Source: a virus (Duplodnaviria; Heunggongvirae; Uroviricota; Caudoviricetes). Taken from it: a DNA stretch of 64,000 nt. The notes under the pieces are model-generated. The model was not told the DNA's origin. It searched no databases and worked only from the letters and a program-made list of their open reading frames with translations. Numbering within the stretch: position 1 is the stretch's first letter; the number at the start of each line of letters is the position of its first letter. The position numbers were made by a program, and so were the translations under genes. Location: IMG/VR virus record IMGVR_UViG_2537561978_000005. One strand, given 5' to 3'. Shown piece after piece: positions 26,602-37,214 of the stretch.

Positions 26602-26994
26602 ATGGAACAAATCAGCAGCGCAGAAATTGCGGATATCATGATCAGGGCTGACTGCTATCTGACAGTCACTGAAATTACCACTCTCGCCAAAGAAAAATAC
26701 CCTCATCTCCATGTTTCACGAGTAAGTGTAACTAACATCATTCGTCATTTTGTTCGTTCAAGCAGGGCAATCTGTGAGCTTGATGATCGTGTTTACCCAC
26801 GAAAATACTGGTTGCATGGCCTGAACGGATATCAGTTCAAGGTGCGTGGGCGAACCCCTGAATATGGCAGTTTACTGGTTAAAAACTGTAGCAGGAAATC
26901 AGTCGAACAGGCGCGAAAAGAGCAACGAGAGCTGGTGGACATGGCGAATAAGCTGTGGAATGCCGCCGTTAAAAAGCGTGGTGTTGCTTTATGA
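26602..26994 (+). CDS. Hypothetical DNA-binding protein immediately upstream of pacA (position of a late-gene activator such as Lpa)
   Basis: 130 aa, RBS GGGGGA; synteny only. Confidence 0.3.
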   Translation: MEQISSAEIADIMIRADCYLTVTEITTLAKEKYPHLHVSRVSVTNIIRHFVRSSRAICELDDRVYPRKYWLHGLNGYQFKVRGRTPEYGSLLVKNCSRKSVEQARKEQRELVDMANKLWNAAVKKRGVAL

Positions 26995-28355
26995 GTCTGG
27001 TTAATTGGGAGGAGCACCGCGCCCGCTTTATAGCGTTGCGTGAAGAAAAAGGGATCACTGTAAAGGAATACTGTGAGGAGCATGGCCTTAGCTTCAATAC
27101 AGCCAGAAAGCATCTCAATATGAAAAAAAATGAGGTGCGGTCGCAGGTAAAGACAACAAAAAAAAGCACCAAATCACCTGAAAAAAAACGGGCGGGAAGA
27201 GCAACAAAAAAGCTGGAAGAGGGTGCAGAAAAAACAAAATTTACAGAAATTGACAATTCGCAGGGCGCAGGTTCTTTCCGAAGTATGCCGAGAAAGAAAA
27301 CTTCGGATCATGAAAATAATTCAAATAATAACAATGAGATAAAAGAATCTGTCAGGAGATCATTGCGCGAAAAAATGGCGAAAATGATCCCCGAAGAAGA
27401 TAAAAACGCCCCAAAAATTGAGGGATCTTCTGCAATGATCCCTGACGGTGCTGTGCAGCGTGCCACATTGCCAACTACGAATGTGGCTCGCGATATGATG
27501 AAGAACGGCGCAGAAGAACACCTGCGGTTAGCAATTCAAATGGCGCAAGAGCGCGCACTTCAGTATCAAAGCATTGTTGATCAGGAGGCCGAACGTCTAC
27601 AGGCGGAAATAGACGCCTTGGGCGATAAAGAGCCAGAAGGAATGCACCCTGGGCAGCGCCTTCTCGGTCTAATCAGTGACGCGGCCTACTACATGAATGA
27701 TTTTATCAGTAGGTTGGCAGCTATATATCAGTCCGAACAAAAGCTGCGACAGGGGGATGAAAAGCTTCGTCAGAGCGCTCGCCAGCAAGCATTCAAAGAG
27801 GCTGAGGCCAGAGAAAAACTCGAATTAGCACGCCTACAGGCCGAACAGCGTGGCAAAGAGATTGAATATCGCATTGGCGCTGACGCACGCGCAGCCAGAG
27901 TTATCGCCGCCGCTATACGTATGCGTGAGCGCGAGGAACTGGATGATATCGGTGTTGCTGAATACATCGAGCGCCAGGGTGTCAGCGTCCCGGCTATCCT
28001 CGCGGCGCGCGCGGCGAAAGCTATCACTCTTCTCGAACCACCTGTTTCTGACGTCAATGATGTTGATGATGAACAGCTGGACAAAGAGGCAAGGGAGTTT
28101 GCAACGCTTCAGGCTAACCATCCGCAATGGCTGGCAGAGCGCCGGGCGGATGTGGCAACCATTGTTGAAGAATTGGGGTGCGGAGATTACGACCGCAATG
28201 GCGAGCGTAAAGCTGGAGAATTCGAGGCCAACGACGAAGAGCTGGATATTGACCCTTCGGCAACGGCTGAAATTTACGGTGATTATGATGCATCTGATGC
28301 AGGGTATGACGCCGGAGATGATGATATCGCGATAGAACCGCCGGAGGATGATTAA
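26991..28355 (+). CDS. pacA: Terminase small subunit (PacA-like)
   Basis: 454 aa, N-terminal HTH-like region, Lys-rich linker, acidic C-terminus; overlaps the terminase large subunit start; GATC cluster in its 5' third. Confidence 0.6.
   Translation: MSLVNWEEHRARFIALREEKGITVKEYCEEHGLSFNTARKHLNMKKNEVRSQVKTTKKSTKSPEKKRAGRATKKLEEGAEKTKFTEIDNSQGAGSFRSMPRKKTSDHENNSNNNNEIKESVRRSLREKMAKMIPEEDKNAPKIEGSSAMIPDGAVQRATLPTTNVARDMMKNGAEEHLRLAIQMAQERALQYQSIVDQEAERLQAEIDALGDKEPEGMHPGQRLLGLISDAAYYMNDFISRLAAIYQSEQKLRQGDEKLRQSARQQAFKEAEAREKLELARLQAEQRGKEIEYRIGADARAARVIAAAIRMREREELDDIGVAEYIERQGVSVPAILAARAAKAITLLEPPVSDVNDVDDEQLDKEAREFATLQANHPQWLAERRADVATIVEELGCGDYDRNGERKAGEFEANDEELDIDPSATAEIYGDYDASDAGYDAGDDDIAIEPPEDD
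27300..27585. other. Candidate pac site region: cluster of GATC-containing hexamers
   Basis: GATC at 27306, 27386, 27424, 27437 and 27579 (TGATCC/TGATCA forms), 5 in about 280 bp against about 1 expected. Confidence 0.35.
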
Positions 28356-29863
28356 TGGCTGGCGGGCGCAAGATTAAATGCGTCACCAGCGATCCACGCT
28401 GGCGCGATATGGTAATCAAATACCGCTACAACTTTACCCAGGCTGTAGTCGATATTTTTGGGATGTTCCCCTCCCACCAGCAGCAGCAGATCATTCAGTC
28501 AGTGCAGGAAACGGGGAGTAGGACGACCGTCACGTCCGGACACGGAACGGGGAAGTCGTCCCTTACCGCGATGTTGCTGTTGATTTTTATGATCCTGTTC
28601 CCCGATGCCCGTGTCATCATTGTTGCTAACAAGATAGGCCAGGTAAAAACAGGCGTATTCAAATACGTTAAACAGTATTGGGCGAATGCAGTTAAGCGTC
28701 ATGGGTGGTTGCAGACCTATTTTGTCCTCTCTGACACCATGTTTTATGAGCGCTCCCGTAAGGGGATTTGGGAAGTTCTCTGCAAAGGTTATCGACTCGG
28801 CAACGAAGAAGCGCTGGCGGGGGAACACGCGGCACATTTGCTTCTAATTCTGGATGAAGCATCTGGTATATCTGATAAGGCGATCGGCGTAATGACCGGT
28901 GCTCTTACTGAAGAAGATAACCGGATGTTGATGCTATCCCAGCCAACAAGGCCAAGTGGTTATTTCTACGATTCGCACCATTCTCGAGCAAAAACCCCAG
29001 ACAACCCGAAAGGGATCTGGACAGCAATTGTTCTTAACTCGGAAGAATCACCGTTCGTCACACCACAATTCATCAAGGAGAAGCTTCTGGAATATGGTGG
29101 GCGCGATTCTATTGAGTACATGGTCAAGGTGCTTGGTCAGTTCCCACGAGAAATTAACGGCTATTTGCTTGGTCGTGATGAATGCGATCGCTCTGCTCGC
29201 CGCAAGGTGTTGTTGGAGAAAAACTGGGGATGGGTGGCAACGGCTGACGTTGGTAATGGGCGAGATAAGTCGGTCCTCAACATCTGCAAGGTATCAGGTC
29301 ACAGGGATAAGCGGCGCGTTGTTAACTTTAAGGTAATGGAGATGCCTGGCACTATGGACCCATTGGCCTTTGCTGACTTCATATATAACGAATGTACGCC
29401 GGAAAAATACCCGAATATAACAATCGCGGTTGATGCTGATGGTTTTGGTTCTGATACGTGTGCGCAGTTGGTGCGTCGTGGTGCGAACCCGGTACGTATT
29501 CGGTGGGGAAAACCCATGTTTGCGAACAAAGACAGGGAGCGATTTGTTAATCAGCGTGCCTACGCAAATATTATGGCGCGAGATGCCATAAAGTCAGGGC
29601 GTATGCGGATAGACAGTGACCCTAAAACGGCAGAGCAAGCGTCAAAAATCCCCTTTTTACTGAATGAAGAAGGGAAAATGGCGATGATGCGCAAAGAGCA
29701 CATGCGGCAAAAGCTAAACATCAAATCGCCTGACCGATGGGATACCTACTGCTTCACTATGCTGGTGGACTATGTGCCTGCTAATGAAGATATTGGTGCC
29801 GAAATGGCAACTTTCCGAGATCAGGTTCTGGCGGATATCGAAATGCCGGATCTGGATATATAA
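28355..29863 (+). CDS. pacB: Terminase large subunit (PacB-like)
   Basis: Walker A SGHGTGKSS, Walker B LLLILDEASGI, start overlaps pacA stop (TAATG), GGAGG RBS. Confidence 0.75.
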   Translation: MAGGRKIKCVTSDPRWRDMVIKYRYNFTQAVVDIFGMFPSHQQQQIIQSVQETGSRTTVTSGHGTGKSSLTAMLLLIFMILFPDARVIIVANKIGQVKTGVFKYVKQYWANAVKRHGWLQTYFVLSDTMFYERSRKGIWEVLCKGYRLGNEEALAGEHAAHLLLILDEASGISDKAIGVMTGALTEEDNRMLMLSQPTRPSGYFYDSHHSRAKTPDNPKGIWTAIVLNSEESPFVTPQFIKEKLLEYGGRDSIEYMVKVLGQFPREINGYLLGRDECDRSARRKVLLEKNWGWVATADVGNGRDKSVLNICKVSGHRDKRRVVNFKVMEMPGTMDPLAFADFIYNECTPEKYPNITIAVDADGFGSDTCAQLVRRGANPVRIRWGKPMFANKDRERFVNQRAYANIMARDAIKSGRMRIDSDPKTAEQASKIPFLLNEEGKMAMMRKEHMRQKLNIKSPDRWDTYCFTMLVDYVPANEDIGAEMATFRDQVLADIEMPDLDI

Positions 29864-31137: not shown

Positions 31138-31171
31138 ATAACTTTAAATAATTGGCATTATTTAAAGTTAG
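31138..31171. other. lox-like recombination site (13-bp inverted arms, 8-bp spacer)
   Basis: ATAACTTTAAATA-ATTGGCAT-TATTTAAAGTTAG; arms match each other 12/13 and match loxP arms (ATAACTTCGTATA) at 10/13; 150 bp upstream of the Cre homologue. Confidence 0.7.
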
Positions 31172-31322
31172 GCTATAATTATGGGTAGATGATCAGTATT
31201 GACATCACTGAAAATACGCGCCTCGAATCAAAGGCTTGAATCTTGAAAATTAACTTATAGCTACCCTGTCATTTTTATATTTTTCGCGTAGCGTTATCTG
31301 TATATAGAGGTTAAATAGTTTC

Positions 31323-32769: not shown

Positions 32770-33242
32770 AAACTTATTACCCATCTCTGAATTGTTACCC
32801 GTCTTCCTATCCAGAATTATCCGGGAAGCTGTTAGCTCTATTAGCTAAAGCACCTACGGAATGGTTTAAGCCAGTCGTTATCAATCCACACTTCCTGGGT
32901 TACGGATCTGTTCGCACTCGTAACGAACTCAAAAACCTACTGGCGCATGGATTCATTCGACACCGTGCCGGGAAAGGCTATCAGTTAGCGATTGCGCCAG
33001 AAGAGGCCGTGCGGCTATTCGCATATCGTGACAGCCAGACAAAAACTCGGGTAATAGCTCAAATACTTCATAACGGCAGCACCTATGCCCGCCAGTTTGG
33101 CGGCGACACGTCGCAGTTCTTGCGGGCGGTGCGATCGCTGGATGAGCAAGGAGTTATTGAAAGTTCCTGTCTTCCTGTTCCTACCGTTCCACATATCAAA
33201 CGTCGGGTTTACACCTTCACGCAGAGAGCTAAAAAACAATGA
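32766..33242 (+). CDS. Hypothetical protein
   Basis: About 158 aa; GTG 32766 chosen over track start 32760 for SD spacing. Confidence 0.45.
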   Translation: MKTYYPSLNCYPSSYPELSGKLLALLAKAPTEWFKPVVINPHFLGYGSVRTRNELKNLLAHGFIRHRAGKGYQLAIAPEEAVRLFAYRDSQTKTRVIAQILHNGSTYARQFGGDTSQFLRAVRSLDEQGVIESSCLPVPTVPHIKRRVYTFTQRAKKQ

Positions 33243-33733
33243 TTTACGTAAAAGTGAAACGCCTACATCCGGCAGCAAAACTTCCAGCTTATGCCACCTC
33301 CGGATCGGCGGCGATGGATTTTGAGGCTGTTGAAATAAAACCATGCGTCGATAGCAATGGTGCAATTTCCTCAAGCTGGTGGGTGTATACCGGACTGGCT
33401 ATGGAGATCCCGCCCGGCTGGTGTCTGAAACTCTATCCGCGATCAGGATTGGGCTGCAAAAAACATACTCGCCTGGCTAACTGCGTAGGAATTATCGACT
33501 CCGATTATCGCGGCGAAATCATGGCAAAACTGATTACTGATCCCGGCGGGGAAGGCGTTTGTCTCAAGCCTGGAATGGCTGTCATGCAAGGAATTTTTGA
33601 GCGTGTTGAACAAGTCTCACTAGTCGAGGTTGAGGAACTCAACGAAACGGAGCGTGGTGCTGGTGGCTTTGGTAGCACATCGGAAGGCCACTTTGAAATT
33701 AAGCGTTCACCGCTTCAGTACGAAAAGTTATAA
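33239..33733 (+). CDS. dut: dUTP diphosphatase (dUTPase)
   Basis: Motifs AAMDFEA, RSGLG, IDSDYRGE, RGAGGFGSTS in canonical order. Confidence 0.8.
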   Translation: MIYVKVKRLHPAAKLPAYATSGSAAMDFEAVEIKPCVDSNGAISSSWWVYTGLAMEIPPGWCLKLYPRSGLGCKKHTRLANCVGIIDSDYRGEIMAKLITDPGGEGVCLKPGMAVMQGIFERVEQVSLVEVEELNETERGAGGFGSTSEGHFEIKRSPLQYEKL

Positions 33734-33747
33734 GCAGAGAAAAGACT

Positions 33748-34188
33748 ATGAATAACATGGCAACGAAAGAGCTTTTTAAGTTCCGTCCCAAATACAAAGC
33801 TCACAAAAAAAATGGAACCACGGTCATCATTACGGATGACAACGGCGTGATGATTAATCTTACCGGGAGCGTAACTATTTCTGCTGGTGGCATCACCACC
33901 CAGCAAGAAGAAATCGACCTTGAAGCAGCCGACTTTTCAGACGCGCTGATGTGGCTGAAGGAAGGCAAGAAAGTTGCTCGACGCGGGTGGAACGGCGAAA
34001 ACCAATTCTGCTGGCTGGTTCCTGAAGGACAGTACCCGGCACGAATGGAAGCCATTAAGGGATATTTCCCCGGCGACCTCGTTCCGTATGGTGCTTATTT
34101 CGCCTTAAAAAATGCACAAGGTGTAGTTGTTCCGTGGGTGCCTTCAGTTGGCGACCTGCTGGCCTGTGACTGGTTTGTTGTGGAGTGA
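33748..34188 (+). CDS. DUF2829-family protein (Tad2-like candidate signal-sponge fold)
   Basis: ALMWLKEGKKVARRGWNGENQF ... GDLLACDWFVVE matches the DUF2829 pattern as I recall it. Confidence 0.45.
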   Translation: MNNMATKELFKFRPKYKAHKKNGTTVIITDDNGVMINLTGSVTISAGGITTQQEEIDLEAADFSDALMWLKEGKKVARRGWNGENQFCWLVPEGQYPARMEAIKGYFPGDLVPYGAYFALKNAQGVVVPWVPSVGDLLACDWFVVE

Positions 34189-34194
34189 TTTGAC

Positions 34195-34962
34195 ATGGAA
34201 AGCACTAAAACAATTCAATACCGCTTGCGTAATGGCCTGCTGGTGGCTGTTAACGCCGACATGTCACTGCCGTTTGACACGATTGAACGCACTATCATGA
34301 CGTATCTCGGCTTTAATGAAGAGCTGAATGAAGAGCATGGCGTAGCTATATGGAGTGATGCAGACAGCGGCGTTCGTCGTTACATCACCGCCAGGGGCAA
34401 AGACTACTCTCTGGAAGAACTGTTTGCCCTTGCGCAGTCTTTCGAATGTGTAGCATTAGACCTGTTTAATGATCCTGCTATAGCGCAACGACTTATACGC
34501 GAGCTTGGGCTATCCGTTACACCAATTATATTTAAAAATGGCAGCCTGACTGGCACATGGCGCGTAGAACGCATCTCAAACTACCTTCCATATAACCGAC
34601 AGTTAAATGGAGTAATCTCCGGCGTTAACCAGCCCGTAGCGTGTGAAAATGTAAACCTAGTTGTCGCTGTTTTGGCAACCGCATGTCGTGTTATCGGTTT
34701 GGCTAAACAGGCATTTATTCATTTCCCAAATGGTGCAGAAGGTAGCGCAGAGATTATCGCGTGTGATTTCGAATTTACCTGGATGCTACGCGAATATCTG
34801 GACCAAACAGTATTCCGTGCCGAAGAACTGGATATGTATATCACGTCAACGATTCCAGACGATGTGCGAGCTGAAGCAATCGCTACAGCCAGGGCGAAAT
34901 GCCGTGCGGCGATTGCAGAACAGGCCAAAGAAGAAGTTAAGGAAGTGGCAGATGGCGACTAA
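34195..34962 (+). CDS. Hypothetical protein
   Basis: 255 aa, RBS GGAGTGA. Confidence 0.55.
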   Translation: MESTKTIQYRLRNGLLVAVNADMSLPFDTIERTIMTYLGFNEELNEEHGVAIWSDADSGVRRYITARGKDYSLEELFALAQSFECVALDLFNDPAIAQRLIRELGLSVTPIIFKNGSLTGTWRVERISNYLPYNRQLNGVISGVNQPVACENVNLVVAVLATACRVIGLAKQAFIHFPNGAEGSAEIIACDFEFTWMLREYLDQTVFRAEELDMYITSTIPDDVRAEAIATARAKCRAAIAEQAKEEVKEVADGD

Positions 34963-36046
34963 GAGCAATATTTATAAAGATCCGCGCTGGCTGTCGCTGG
35001 TGGAGAAATATAAAGACAATTGGGTACTGGCAGCAAAAGAATTGTTTGATATTGATTTAAGCCACCAGCAACAACAAATTGTTGAAGCTATACAGCCCAA
35101 TAATGCAAAAGCTACTGTCACCACTCCGTATGGGATCGGACGACCGCAAGTGCTTGCTGTTATTAGTACCCTTTATACGATTATGTATCCTGATTCCCGG
35201 ACAGTAATTGTTTATCCAAAATCAAATGTTTGCAAAAGAGGAATTGTTGCATATGTGTGGCAATGTTGGGAGGCATTGCTGAAAAAACAACCTTTTATCA
35301 TTGAGTATTTTAAGGTCGGTGATAGCGGTCTGATGTTCAATGAATTTTGGGGAATGTGCTTTTGTAACTTCCGCCTTAACTATGAAGATAGCATTGCAGG
35401 TCACTACGCCGACCATCTTTTATTCATTATTGTGGATTCCGCACATATCAGCGATCGGGCATACAGCATTGTGTGGGCAAGCATGACTAGTGGTGATTCA
35501 CGCATATTGCTCACTTCAATTCCGTCACCAGAGGAAATAGGCTTTTTTTATGATTCACATCATGGACGTGCTTTAGCTGAAGATAATCCGAGTGGTGTAT
35601 ATAAAGCCATTAAGCTGAGTGCGGAGGATTCACCATTTATTACCCAAGAATATCTTGATCATTTTGCCGAAAGGTATGGCGGGCGAAATAGTGATGACTA
35701 TCGTCGTATGATTCTTGGTGAGTTCCCTGGTATTAGGGAGGCTGTTCTTGAATCAGATATGCCGAAGACAATGCGCTTTTCGATGCCTGATGGTAGTGAA
35801 TGGACAATACCATTACGAGTGATAGCCCGGCATCATGCGCAGCACCACGCCAAAAAACATGGCGTCACGACATTAGAATGGTTGAAATCGCACACCATTC
35901 CACTCTTCACTGCAGATCACAATGCTATCGTTGAGTGGGCAAAAACAATTCCGTGGGAGAATGTCGCTGAATACGCCCACATGCTAAAACCGCCGAAAGA
36001 CAGGCAAGAAATTAGCTGGCTGACAGCAGAAAAAATCATTGAGTGA
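34952..36046 (+). CDS. Terminase-large-subunit paralogue with degenerate ATPase motifs
   Basis: Aligns with PacB N-terminal half (DPRW, HQQQQI, FYDSHH, DNP.G, SPF, EYGGR, LG.FP) but Walker A SGHGTGKS is TPYGIGRP and Walker B LDEAS is VDSAH; track start 34661 is an upstream extension, ATG 34952 follows GGAAGTGG. Confidence 0.55.
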   Translation: MATKSNIYKDPRWLSLVEKYKDNWVLAAKELFDIDLSHQQQQIVEAIQPNNAKATVTTPYGIGRPQVLAVISTLYTIMYPDSRTVIVYPKSNVCKRGIVAYVWQCWEALLKKQPFIIEYFKVGDSGLMFNEFWGMCFCNFRLNYEDSIAGHYADHLLFIIVDSAHISDRAYSIVWASMTSGDSRILLTSIPSPEEIGFFYDSHHGRALAEDNPSGVYKAIKLSAEDSPFITQEYLDHFAERYGGRNSDDYRRMILGEFPGIREAVLESDMPKTMRFSMPDGSEWTIPLRVIARHHAQHHAKKHGVTTLEWLKSHTIPLFTADHNAIVEWAKTIPWENVAEYAHMLKPPKDRQEISWLTAEKIIE

Positions 36047-36050
36047 TAGT

Positions 36051-36080
36051 AAGAAGCCCGCCTGGTTGAGCGGGCTTCTT
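36051..36080 (+). terminator. Rho-independent terminator between convergent genes
   Basis: GAAGCCCGC-ctggttga-GCGGGCTTC followed by TTTT. Confidence 0.6.
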
Positions 36081-36081
36081 T

Positions 36082-36462
36082 TCAAATATTGGAACCATAT
36101 AGTTCACGTAGTTTTTTCGCTACTGAAGATACGGGGATTTCACCAGTTGCAGCCCCCACTGCAAGCTCCACCAGCACGGGATCATCATATACCTGTATAC
36201 CGTTACGGCGTAGAAATAGCAGCGCACTGTTTAGCGCGGTACGCTTATTGGCATCATTGAATATATGCCCTCTCGCCGTAGCCACCAGGTAGGTGGCGGA
36301 GACTTCGAAAAGGTCGGTGATCTCTTCGTAGGCAACTCTGGCCTGAACTCTCCCGATAATGGCCTCTGCCCTACCCGGATCTGACATTCCCGGCAGGCCG
36401 CCGTAGCGGCTTATATTCGCATCATGAAGCGCAATAAGTTCTTCCGGTGATATATGCCTCAT
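36082..36462 (-). CDS. doc: Doc toxin (Fic/Doc family)
   Basis: 126 aa, Fic motif HIFNDANKR; essentially the P1 Doc sequence as I recall it. Confidence 0.9.
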
Positions 36463-36683
36463 TATCGGTTAACCAGTTCCTTGTTGGTGGAGTCCAGGGT
36501 GTCAAACAGGGATGCAAATTCGGCATCCAGCGCCGCTTTTTTGTAGGCTTCAAAAGTAGCCTTGCTGACAATTACTGCTGGCTCACGGCCTCTGCGGGTG
36601 ATTTCAACCTCTTCCCCGGCTTCAACATTGTTGAGCACTTCAGAAAGGTTGCCGCGCGCGGTACGGAAGTTAATGGATTGCAT
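36462..36683 (-). CDS. phd: Phd antitoxin
   Basis: [73 protein letters not shown], 73 aa; stop overlaps doc start. Confidence 0.9.
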
Positions 36684-36791
36684 AAACACCTCGTGTGCTC
36701 GTTATGTGTACGCAATTATAGGTTTTAATGATGCTGAATACCACTTCTTGGTGCCTTAAATCCTCGAGATGCAGTCTTGCAATTGCTGGGA

Positions 36792-37214
36792 TTAAGCAGA
36801 ATAAGTGGTTGGAATTCTGAGCAGTAATCCAATCTTGGCTATGTGCTCATATGGCAGCTCTCCGGTTTTACCATCATGTATCGAGGCTATCAGATTCAAT
36901 TCTTGCGCCGCTTTACGAATTTCAGTTTCTGATGGAACAAGGCGAAAACCGATGTGTAACATTTTGATATAGAAAGGTAATAGTTCGTACTTCACCCGTA
37001 ACTGTGCTGCCGCATCTTTCAAATCATGGATGATTTCTTGTTTTAAGTCAGAGCGGGGATTCGATAGCTTTGCTTGGTTAGACAATAACAGATGCGATAT
37101 TTCCCCCAACTGTTCCTTGAATGAAATGTAAGACTCAACCCCCTTGATGATGAGTCGACCTAGGACAAAAACGCTTACTCCAGTGACAACAGTGACAAAA
37201 GCAGACGAACTCAT
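36792..37214 (-). CDS. Hypothetical membrane-anchored protein between humD and phd
   Basis: 140 aa, N-terminal TM helix VTVVTGVSVFVLGRLII. Confidence 0.5.
   Translation of the reverse strand: MSSSAFVTVVTGVSVFVLGRLIIKGVESYISFKEQLGEISHLLLSNQAKLSNPRSDLKQEIIHDLKDAAAQLRVKYELLPFYIKMLHIGFRLVPSETEIRKAAQELNLIASIHDGKTGELPYEHIAKIGLLLRIPTTYSA

Follow-up and report, generated by a model that had tools for sequence, protein, structure and literature searches.

Positions 34952..36046 (+ strand) of the tailed-phage record IMGVR_UViG_2537561978_000005 encode a protein of 364 aa plus stop, which appears to be a pseudo-enzyme offshoot of the terminase large subunit (TerL). The window, meaning the whole stretch of DNA that was analyzed, is 64,000 nucleotides long and also contains the functional terminase large subunit PacB (28355..29863, + strand), the parent of the paralogue, with its GHGTGKS and LDEAS motifs intact, as well as the other terminase subunit, PacA (26991..28355, + strand), which is given for orientation. 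The paralogue is a pseudo-ATPase with the terminase fold; it has no nuclease and carries a small constant domain instead. We discuss the loss of its catalytic motifs, the family to which it belongs, its alleles and surroundings, and the roles that such a non-catalytic terminase mimic could play.

Loss of the Catalytic Motifs

In BLASTP, the paralogue matches the window's PacB with 37% identity over 258 aa (residues 7-259, E 6e-57) and the P1 PacB with 33% identity (E 6e-53), a similarity which lies far beyond chance. The first-pass annotation had aligned the protein with the ATPase half of PacB over about 300 residues; the relationship is borne out, and its extent comes down to about 260 residues. 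The terminase-large-subunit ATPase-like domain comprises residues 1-262 (34952..35737, + strand), with the fold kept, the catalytic positions degenerate, and the character of a hypervariable, swapped cassette. In the P-loop, PacB SGHGTGKSS stands opposite TPYGIGRPQ, with GTGKS replaced by GIGRP just as first read, and the degenerate Walker A motif P59-Y-G-I-G-R-P65 (35126..35146, + strand) lies opposite PacB G-H-G-T-G-K-S. The degenerate Walker B motif, L-L-F-I-I-V161-D162-S-A (35417..35443, + strand), lies opposite PacB L-L-L-I-L-D-E-A-S, and PacB LLILDEASG aligns with LFIIVDSAH without gaps. The earlier description of this motif as a change from DE to DS was right as to degeneracy and one position off in register: the Walker B aspartate is replaced by Val161, and the catalytic glutamate by Asp162. 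Nothing PacB-like is found past residue 266, and residues 265-364 bear no resemblance to the PacB nuclease half, in agreement with the first-pass annotation. In place of the nuclease stands a C-terminal domain of about 95 aa (residues 270-364; 35759..36043, + strand), which belongs to a separate, widespread, and uncharacterized family of small phage proteins.

PacB and the paralogue share the N-terminal ASCE ATPase fold of the TerL type, at 33-37% identity over about 260 residues, together with the Q motif, the P-loop GxG, the S-x-P motif III position, GxFYDSHH, NPxG, and GxFP. Four of the five defining features of TerL are lacking in the paralogue, unlike in PacB: the Walker A Lys (and with it the Ser), the Walker B Asp and catalytic Glu, the RNase H-like nuclease, and the location in the packaging module, the gene being accessory rather than universal and lying away from pacA and from any late promoter. 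Therefore, the protein should not be annotated as a terminase large subunit, which is the label that GenBank MH422554 gives to its own paralogue. The AlphaFold2 (AF2) fold of the protein is confident. Pfam terminase models leave it undetected, PHROG 2 (terminase large subunit) matches it at E 9e-9, and PHROG 5902, a family of unknown function, matches it at full length (E 8.6e-165; residues 4-363, profile positions 2-358 of 359). Scans of the paralogue, the neighboring IsaA-like protein, and distant paralogues against Pfam, NCBIfam, and PADLOC returned no informative family; PADLOC-DB v2 gave zero matches for the first two and for the paralogues P0012, P0013, and P0014, and PDB sequence searches with the paralogue and with IsaA gave none.

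Degenerate Paralogues Across the Family

HMMER was run exhaustively against 1.84 billion representative proteins and returned 793 hits. All those of at least 170 aa were aligned to PacB, and the column statistics compare 116 full-size terminases with 13 short paralogues. A first, word-indexed protein search had given 7 hits, and the wider clade emerged only with the exhaustive one. A scan of IMG/VR with a single protein as query yielded close relatives only. The full-size terminases (about 450-860 aa) nearly all carry G-K-[ST] and [D/E]-E, the exceptions being two P-loop variants, P0079 and P0133. Both motifs are degenerate in the short proteins of the target family, that of the window's paralogue (364-366 aa), in further paralogues of 230-268 aa (P0009, P0012, P0013, P0015, P0042, P0047, P0111, and P0150), and likewise in P0014 (444 aa). 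The Walker A lysine is found in 100% of the terminases (116/116) and in 0/13 paralogues, the catalytic glutamate in 100% (116/116) and 1/13, the Walker B aspartate in 92% and 3/13, the histidine of the AGxH motif in 99% and 0/13, and the motif III threonine in 83% and 0/13. The loss of the catalytic motifs is a feature of the clade, not a one-off.

The paralogues keep residues of the fold, including the Q-motif Gln, both P-loop glycines, G150, A163, P191, G197, F199, S227-P228, Y250, G256, and F258, as well as the non-catalytic surface motifs GxFYDSHH, NPxG, GG[RK], and GxFP. In the target family, the Lys position is held by R, Q, Q, H, or E and the Asp position by V, T, A, M, or I, a variety of residues that relaxed constraint on catalysis would predict. 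The nearest terminases of the window's paralogue are PacB-type, not gp17-type, and no paralogue allele is closer to any particular PacB lineage. By reciprocal BLAST, P0042 and P0111 resemble another canonical terminase (47%) more closely than they do the remaining paralogues, which suggests that the degenerate paralogues had at least two or three independent origins.

Among the full-size terminases, several hits of at least 800 aa (P0039, P0067, P0114, and others) contain a large insertion inside the Walker A loop, where, in P0039, ASGHG is followed by CFAAGTPIM... These insertions look like P-loop inteins.

Allelic Variation and Selection

The target family consists of three alleles: A, that of the window; B, which is 64-66% identical and sits in the same D6-type slot; and C, which is 51% identical and is found in P1-type genomes, such as MH422554, after ssb and isaA. 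Between the window and CP057047.1, which carries allele B, the DNA is 95-100% identical through dut, isaA, the C-domain of the paralogue, and doc, and precisely the stretch of the terminase-like domain (34.9-35.7 kb) drops to 50-70%. By Nei-Gojobori estimates of nonsynonymous (dN) and synonymous (dS) divergence, alleles A and B differ in the N-domain with a dS of 1.41 and a dN of 0.38, and in the C-domain with a dS of 0.10. So high an N-domain dS between near-identical flanks marks the N-domains as ancient alleles moved by recombination into near-identical backbones, not sequences diversified in place. Within allele A, dN/dS is 0.09-0.13 in both domains, and a ratio of about 0.1 shows that the gene is functional and under purifying selection.

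The PacA and PacB of CP057047.1 are 99% identical to those of the window, and its paralogue N-domain is 53% identical; in NZ_AP027688.1, the paralogue is identical and pacB is 91% identical. The paralogue alleles are thus independent of the element's own PacA and PacB, without co-variation. This pattern bears on the proposal, made from the first reading of the gene, that the protein regulates packaging. One way to do so would be to sequester PacA and thereby time pac cleavage. Such a role would be the simplest reading for a terminase-subunit paralogue, and the N-terminal and lid motifs are common to PacB. However, the gene is absent from P1, P7, and D6, which package normally without it, and alleles are 47% divergent in the N-domain where PacA and PacB are 99% identical, with the reverse pattern also found. 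Regulation of the element's own packaging is therefore disfavored, and we regard it as very unlikely.

Genomic Neighborhood

In the window, the gene ends a + strand string composed of a 160-aa open reading frame, the dUTPase gene dut (33239-33733), a Tad2-like (Thoeris anti-defense 2; DUF2829) gene (33748..34188; PF11195, E 5.9e-23), an IsaA-like gene (34195..34962), and the paralogue, with gaps of -4, 14, 6, and -11 nt. The pacA-pacB pair (26991-29863) lies about 5 kb from this cre-dut-Tad2-like-isaA string. The IsaA-like protein (255 aa, PHROG 2326) is 48% identical to P1 IsaA, and its gene, which overlaps the start of the paralogue by 11 nt, is therefore its translationally coupled partner; the pairing of isaA and the paralogue is seen at two different loci. 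The ATG at 34952 is backed by the N-termini of homologues, by a ribosome-binding site, AAGGAAG, 7-8 nt on its 5' side, and by this 11-nt overlap. The idea that IsaA is a paralogue of the small terminase PacA, and the pair hence a duplicated terminase operon, was ruled out, as the two show no similarity.

Downstream, a GC-rich hairpin with a T run (36051..36082), likely a bidirectional terminator, separates the stop codon of the paralogue from the convergent doc/phd genes (36082-36689). A 140-aa open reading frame at 36792-37214 (- strand), a homologue of D6 orf109, lies between phd and humD and has no PADLOC match. The window additionally encodes a C1-type repressor and a Cre-type recombinase. 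The P1 C1 operator has zero matches in the window at up to 3 mismatches, and D6-type repressors probably use a different operator from that of P1 C1. A lox-like 13-8-13 site, the D6 'rox', is located at 31138-31171 (ATAACTTTAAATA-ATTGGCAT-TATTTAAAGTTAG) and overlaps the sole strong + strand sigma-70-like promoter match (31152-31179), upstream of the cre-type recombinase gene. The N-terminal part of the Tad2-like protein differs in length and sequence from that of CP057047.1 (146 aa vs 233 aa, with low identity over 33739-34076).

The region around the paralogue is 97% identical to coliphage D6, a P1-family plasmid-prophage, with 60% of a 3-kb query covered, and D6 has the small gene pdcA in the position of the window's gene. 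A diverged P1 pdcB, which occupies the same position beside doc, was considered for the paralogue and ruled out, there being no similarity.

Distribution Among P1-Like Phage-Plasmids

Every degenerate paralogue with a readable context is found in the accessory region of a P1-like phage-plasmid, an assignment based on the C1 repressor (PF27008), a Cre-like integrase, ParM, and PacA/B-sized genes. At least 163 of the 790 matching plasmids in PLSDB have a full-length copy, PLSDB plasmids also contain the identical protein, and its cluster, P0001, has 392 member sequences. Among 5426 complete E. coli genomes, D6-type pacB is on the plasmids of 100 and full-length allele A on those of 36, and allele A is never chromosomal in these genomes.

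P1 and MH422554 share 98% identity as far as the end of isaA and, once more, from hxr on. Between isaA and hxr, P1 (NC_005856, 21569-24243) has 94 bp, IS1, and isaB where MH422554 has the paralogue. The P1 reference genome is thus without the gene because its slot was replaced by the IS1 + isaB segment. P1 IsaB was also considered as a remnant of the paralogue and ruled out for lack of similarity, and the replacement in the P1 slot is clean. The isaA-IS1-isaB segment, or P1 'RD-2', has been noted only as a variable region of P1-like plasmids (PMC6906374), and P1 can grow lytically in the laboratory without isaA and isaB (PMC10695390), consistent with an accessory role. In MH422554, ssb has an exact P1 C1 operator, Ossb, in front of it, isaA and the paralogue overlap by 8 nt, and the ssb-isaA string with the paralogue lies next to the dar anti-restriction genes. 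From the operator and the overlap, we infer that this copy is part of an early string under C1 control.

Other members of the clade have other partners. P0012 overlaps a RecA-dependent-nuclease (RecA_dep_nuc, P1 Ref-like) gene by 4 nt (L008 7336-8792), and P0013 follows a radical-SAM gene with weak viperin/MoaA-like matches (L011 7027-8795). P0150, which is 26% identical, stands directly after a Tad2-like gene and before doc/phd, and a Tad2-like gene is also present in L053. The first two pairings suggest a module of a defense system, in which the paralogue would be a variable terminase-like sensor or adaptor for a component of an invading phage, such as the small terminase or the portal, joined to a constant effector partner: IsaA and the C-domain here, and a Ref-like HNH nuclease or a radical-SAM enzyme elsewhere. 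A variable N-domain beside a constant C-domain and a constant IsaA would suit such a module, as would the adjoining doc/phd genes. However, PADLOC has no match for the paralogues or IsaA, IsaA is present without the paralogue in P1 and D6, Ref is found in that part of P1-like backbones anyway, so that its adjacency may be incidental, and neither IsaA nor the C-domain has a recognizable toxic or enzymatic effector domain. We consider the defense module rather unlikely.

The restriction of the family to P1-like elements is also relevant to interference with packaging. Inactive subunits of ring ATPases are commonly dominant-negative, and a dead ATPase domain could poison the motor of rival P1-like phages as such a subunit, either by co-assembly with the rival terminase or by competition for its partners (the PacA-type small subunit or the portal). 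The N-domain alleles would then match different competitor terminase types. The terminases of P1-like elements are the closest relatives of the paralogues, the non-catalytic surface motifs of PacB are kept, and ancient alleles have been swapped among near-identical backbones while decoupled from their own PacA/PacB. Yet the protein would have to spare its own PacB, at 37% identity; the P1-type copy is behind a C1-repressed promoter region and so is probably silent in the lysogen; C1 already shuts out homoimmune competitors; and the alleles show no preference for any one PacB lineage. Poisoning of a rival motor is accordingly a secondary and doubtful possibility.

The C-Terminal Domain

The family of the C-terminal domain (residues ~270-364) contains at least 1412 clusters at 90% identity, almost all of them stand-alone 'hypothetical proteins' of ~100 aa without a Pfam family. 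Its conserved motifs are MPDGSxWxVP, TxPLF, and DWAxNNMNWxDV, and no fold neighbors were found in the PDB. In lambdoid prophages, the stand-alone gene lies between the DnaB-type helicase and ninB, typically in the nin-like region that follows the replicative helicase. Cronobacter phage JK004, which is P1-like, carries it two genes past the DnaB/Ban helicase, and Xanthomonas phage CP2 has the domain at the C-terminal end of a DUF1351 protein, whose neighbors are DUF2303, Erf, and an exonuclease.

These locations would fit an accessory of DNA replication or recombination, in which the ATPase fold has been exapted to bind DNA or protein as a scaffold, together with Ssb, IsaA, or Ref, and the C-terminal domain is a link to the replication machinery. 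The P1-type copy in the ssb operon and the one lineage with a Ref-like neighbor fit the same idea. Such regions are, however, generic early accessory ('nin-like') regions, isaA and its neighbors are non-essential in P1 (PMC10695390), and the ancient allelic diversity of the N-domain is left unexplained. A replication role is, in our judgment, unlikely.

In P0025, the two domains are fused in the reverse order, with the C-domain first, and the existence of fusions in both orders argues that the domains would work together. P0025 (L012 8001-10384) is truncated by a Tn3-family transposase gene inserted at its 3' end, and a RecA-dependent-nuclease gene lies ~570 bp upstream on the opposite strand. 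P0007 (L053 5001-5801), with 266 aa and 75% identity, has only the N-domain. It occupies the same D6-type slot, its element is without doc/phd, and it may be a deletion product that lost the C-domain together with the toxin-antitoxin pair. A transposon-cut copy, an N-domain-only copy, and the loss of the catalytic motifs are what a decaying duplicate without function might show. That reading is hardly credible, as it is contradicted by the dN/dS of about 0.1, by a frame intact in hundreds of plasmids and in three alleles 50-65% identical, by the confident AF2 fold, and by C-domain fusions that arose in both orders.

A Possible Decoy for Terminase-Sensing Immunity

The reading ranked first, tentatively, is that the paralogue is a look-alike used in conflict with terminase-sensing immunity, as an anti-defense factor or decoy. 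In the proposed sequence of events, the ATPase domain of PacB would have been duplicated, ATP binding and hydrolysis lost (Walker A Lys, Walker B Asp, Glu, AGxH His, and motif III Thr), and the nuclease domain exchanged for a phage accessory domain of ~100 aa. The paralogue may then act purely by binding, as a terminase look-alike, with its target most likely outside its own packaging machine and among the factors that normally engage the terminase ATPase domain. The favored partner would be terminase-sensing host immunity of the Avs1-3 or Upx type. Made from the accessory operon, which in the P1-type version is preceded by a C1 operator, before or in excess of PacB, the protein could occupy or blunt the sensor while the ATP-bridged complex that activates it fails to form. 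A second, invariant contact would come from the constant C-terminal domain and IsaA.

Anti-defense is placed first because the Tad2-like gene shares the same tightly packed string and recurs beside the 26%-identical paralogue, because a C1 operator precedes the P1-type copy, which also has the dar anti-restriction genes for neighbors, and because of what the Avs sensors recognize. The terminase ATPase domain alone activates EcAvs2, and recognition by Avs2 and Avs3 uses the ATP bound at the terminase Walker site (PMC13601566). The paralogue thus resembles the Avs2 ligand and could not normally hold the ATP that Avs2 reads, so it would be expected not to trigger the sensor in that way. The first-pass annotation had already suggested a dead terminase-like protein serving as a decoy, a regulator of packaging, or an anti-defense factor; the dead-paralogue structure stands, and a decoy or anti-defense role is plausible on the circumstantial evidence of the Tad2-like neighbors and the C1 operator.

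Several points weigh against the decoy. Avs proteins recognize fold-level features of very divergent terminases, so that several ancient decoy alleles are hard to explain, and a mimic without bound ATP may fail to bind Avs2 and Avs3 instead of blocking them. Upx recognition mostly survives replacement of the Walker B aspartate of the terminase by Ala; therefore, dead motifs would not hide the paralogue from Upx. Elsewhere in the clade, the gene upstream of the paralogue encodes a Ref-like RecA-dependent nuclease or a radical-SAM protein, a partnership more reminiscent of defense or DNA metabolism. The co-location with the Tad2-like gene may merely reflect a conserved backbone order near doc/phd, and the promoter search in the D6-type backbone found only one consensus-like match, upstream of cre.

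A broader and more speculative form of the decoy idea, to which we give limited credence, is that P1-like phage-plasmids have repeatedly made an ATP-blind mimic from the ATPase domain of their own terminase, the pattern to which Avs1-3 and Upx respond; that this mimic, with a small constant adaptor fused or coupled to it, blocks or diverts terminase-sensing immunity or satellite-type terminase inhibitors; and that the ancient, recombining alleles record an arms race with these sensors. If true, this would be a counter-measure to pattern-recognition immunity built from the recognized pattern itself.

Precedents and Significance

The closest precedent, by analogy, is T4 vs.8, an uncharacterized ATPase-only paralogue of the gp17 terminase with intact Walker motifs, which activates EcAvs2 (PMC13601566). 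Like the window's paralogue, vs.8 is a stand-alone phage terminase ATPase domain without a nuclease, additional to the real terminase and restricted to one phage lineage, the likeness being drawn from its description. The window's paralogue differs in having lost Walker A and B, in its extra C-terminal domain, and in its TerL lineage. Avs2 is also triggered by Ksap1 and Ksap2, small phage proteins whose core is terminase-ATPase-like (PMC11564622, PMC13601566). They are similarly lineage-restricted accessory proteins that resemble the terminase ATPase core and are suspected of anti-defense roles, but they are much smaller, their resemblance is reported in structure only, and they are activators. 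For interference with packaging, the functional analogues are SaPI Ppi and PICI Rpp, non-enzymatic satellite proteins that bind a terminase component of another element; unlike the paralogue, they act on the small terminase and are unrelated to TerL in sequence and fold.

Full-text literature searches found no description of a degenerate PacB paralogue. The window's protein is a full-length member of PHROG 5902, and its P1-type homologue occupies the exact IS1 + isaB slot of the 'RD-2' region; PHROG 5902 and the account of that region (PMC6906374) assign no function and make no mention of a terminase relationship with dead motifs. The present analysis defines two unannotated families, the degenerate TerL-like paralogues and the ~100-aa small phage domain, and shows which gene the IS1-isaB segment displaced from the P1 reference genome. 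At least 163 sequenced enterobacterial plasmids carry the paralogue, as do, in complete E. coli genomes, about one third of the D6-type phage-plasmids. Its novelty would be much greater if a decoy role were demonstrated.

No proteins of tailed phages are more conserved than the terminase large subunits, which are also a main trigger of bacterial pattern-recognition immunity. A conserved, selected, and dead copy of their ATPase domain is a natural probe of what else binds that domain, and this value holds for any role, whether the protein turns out to be a decoy of an immune sensor, a poison subunit of a rival motor, or a sensor module.

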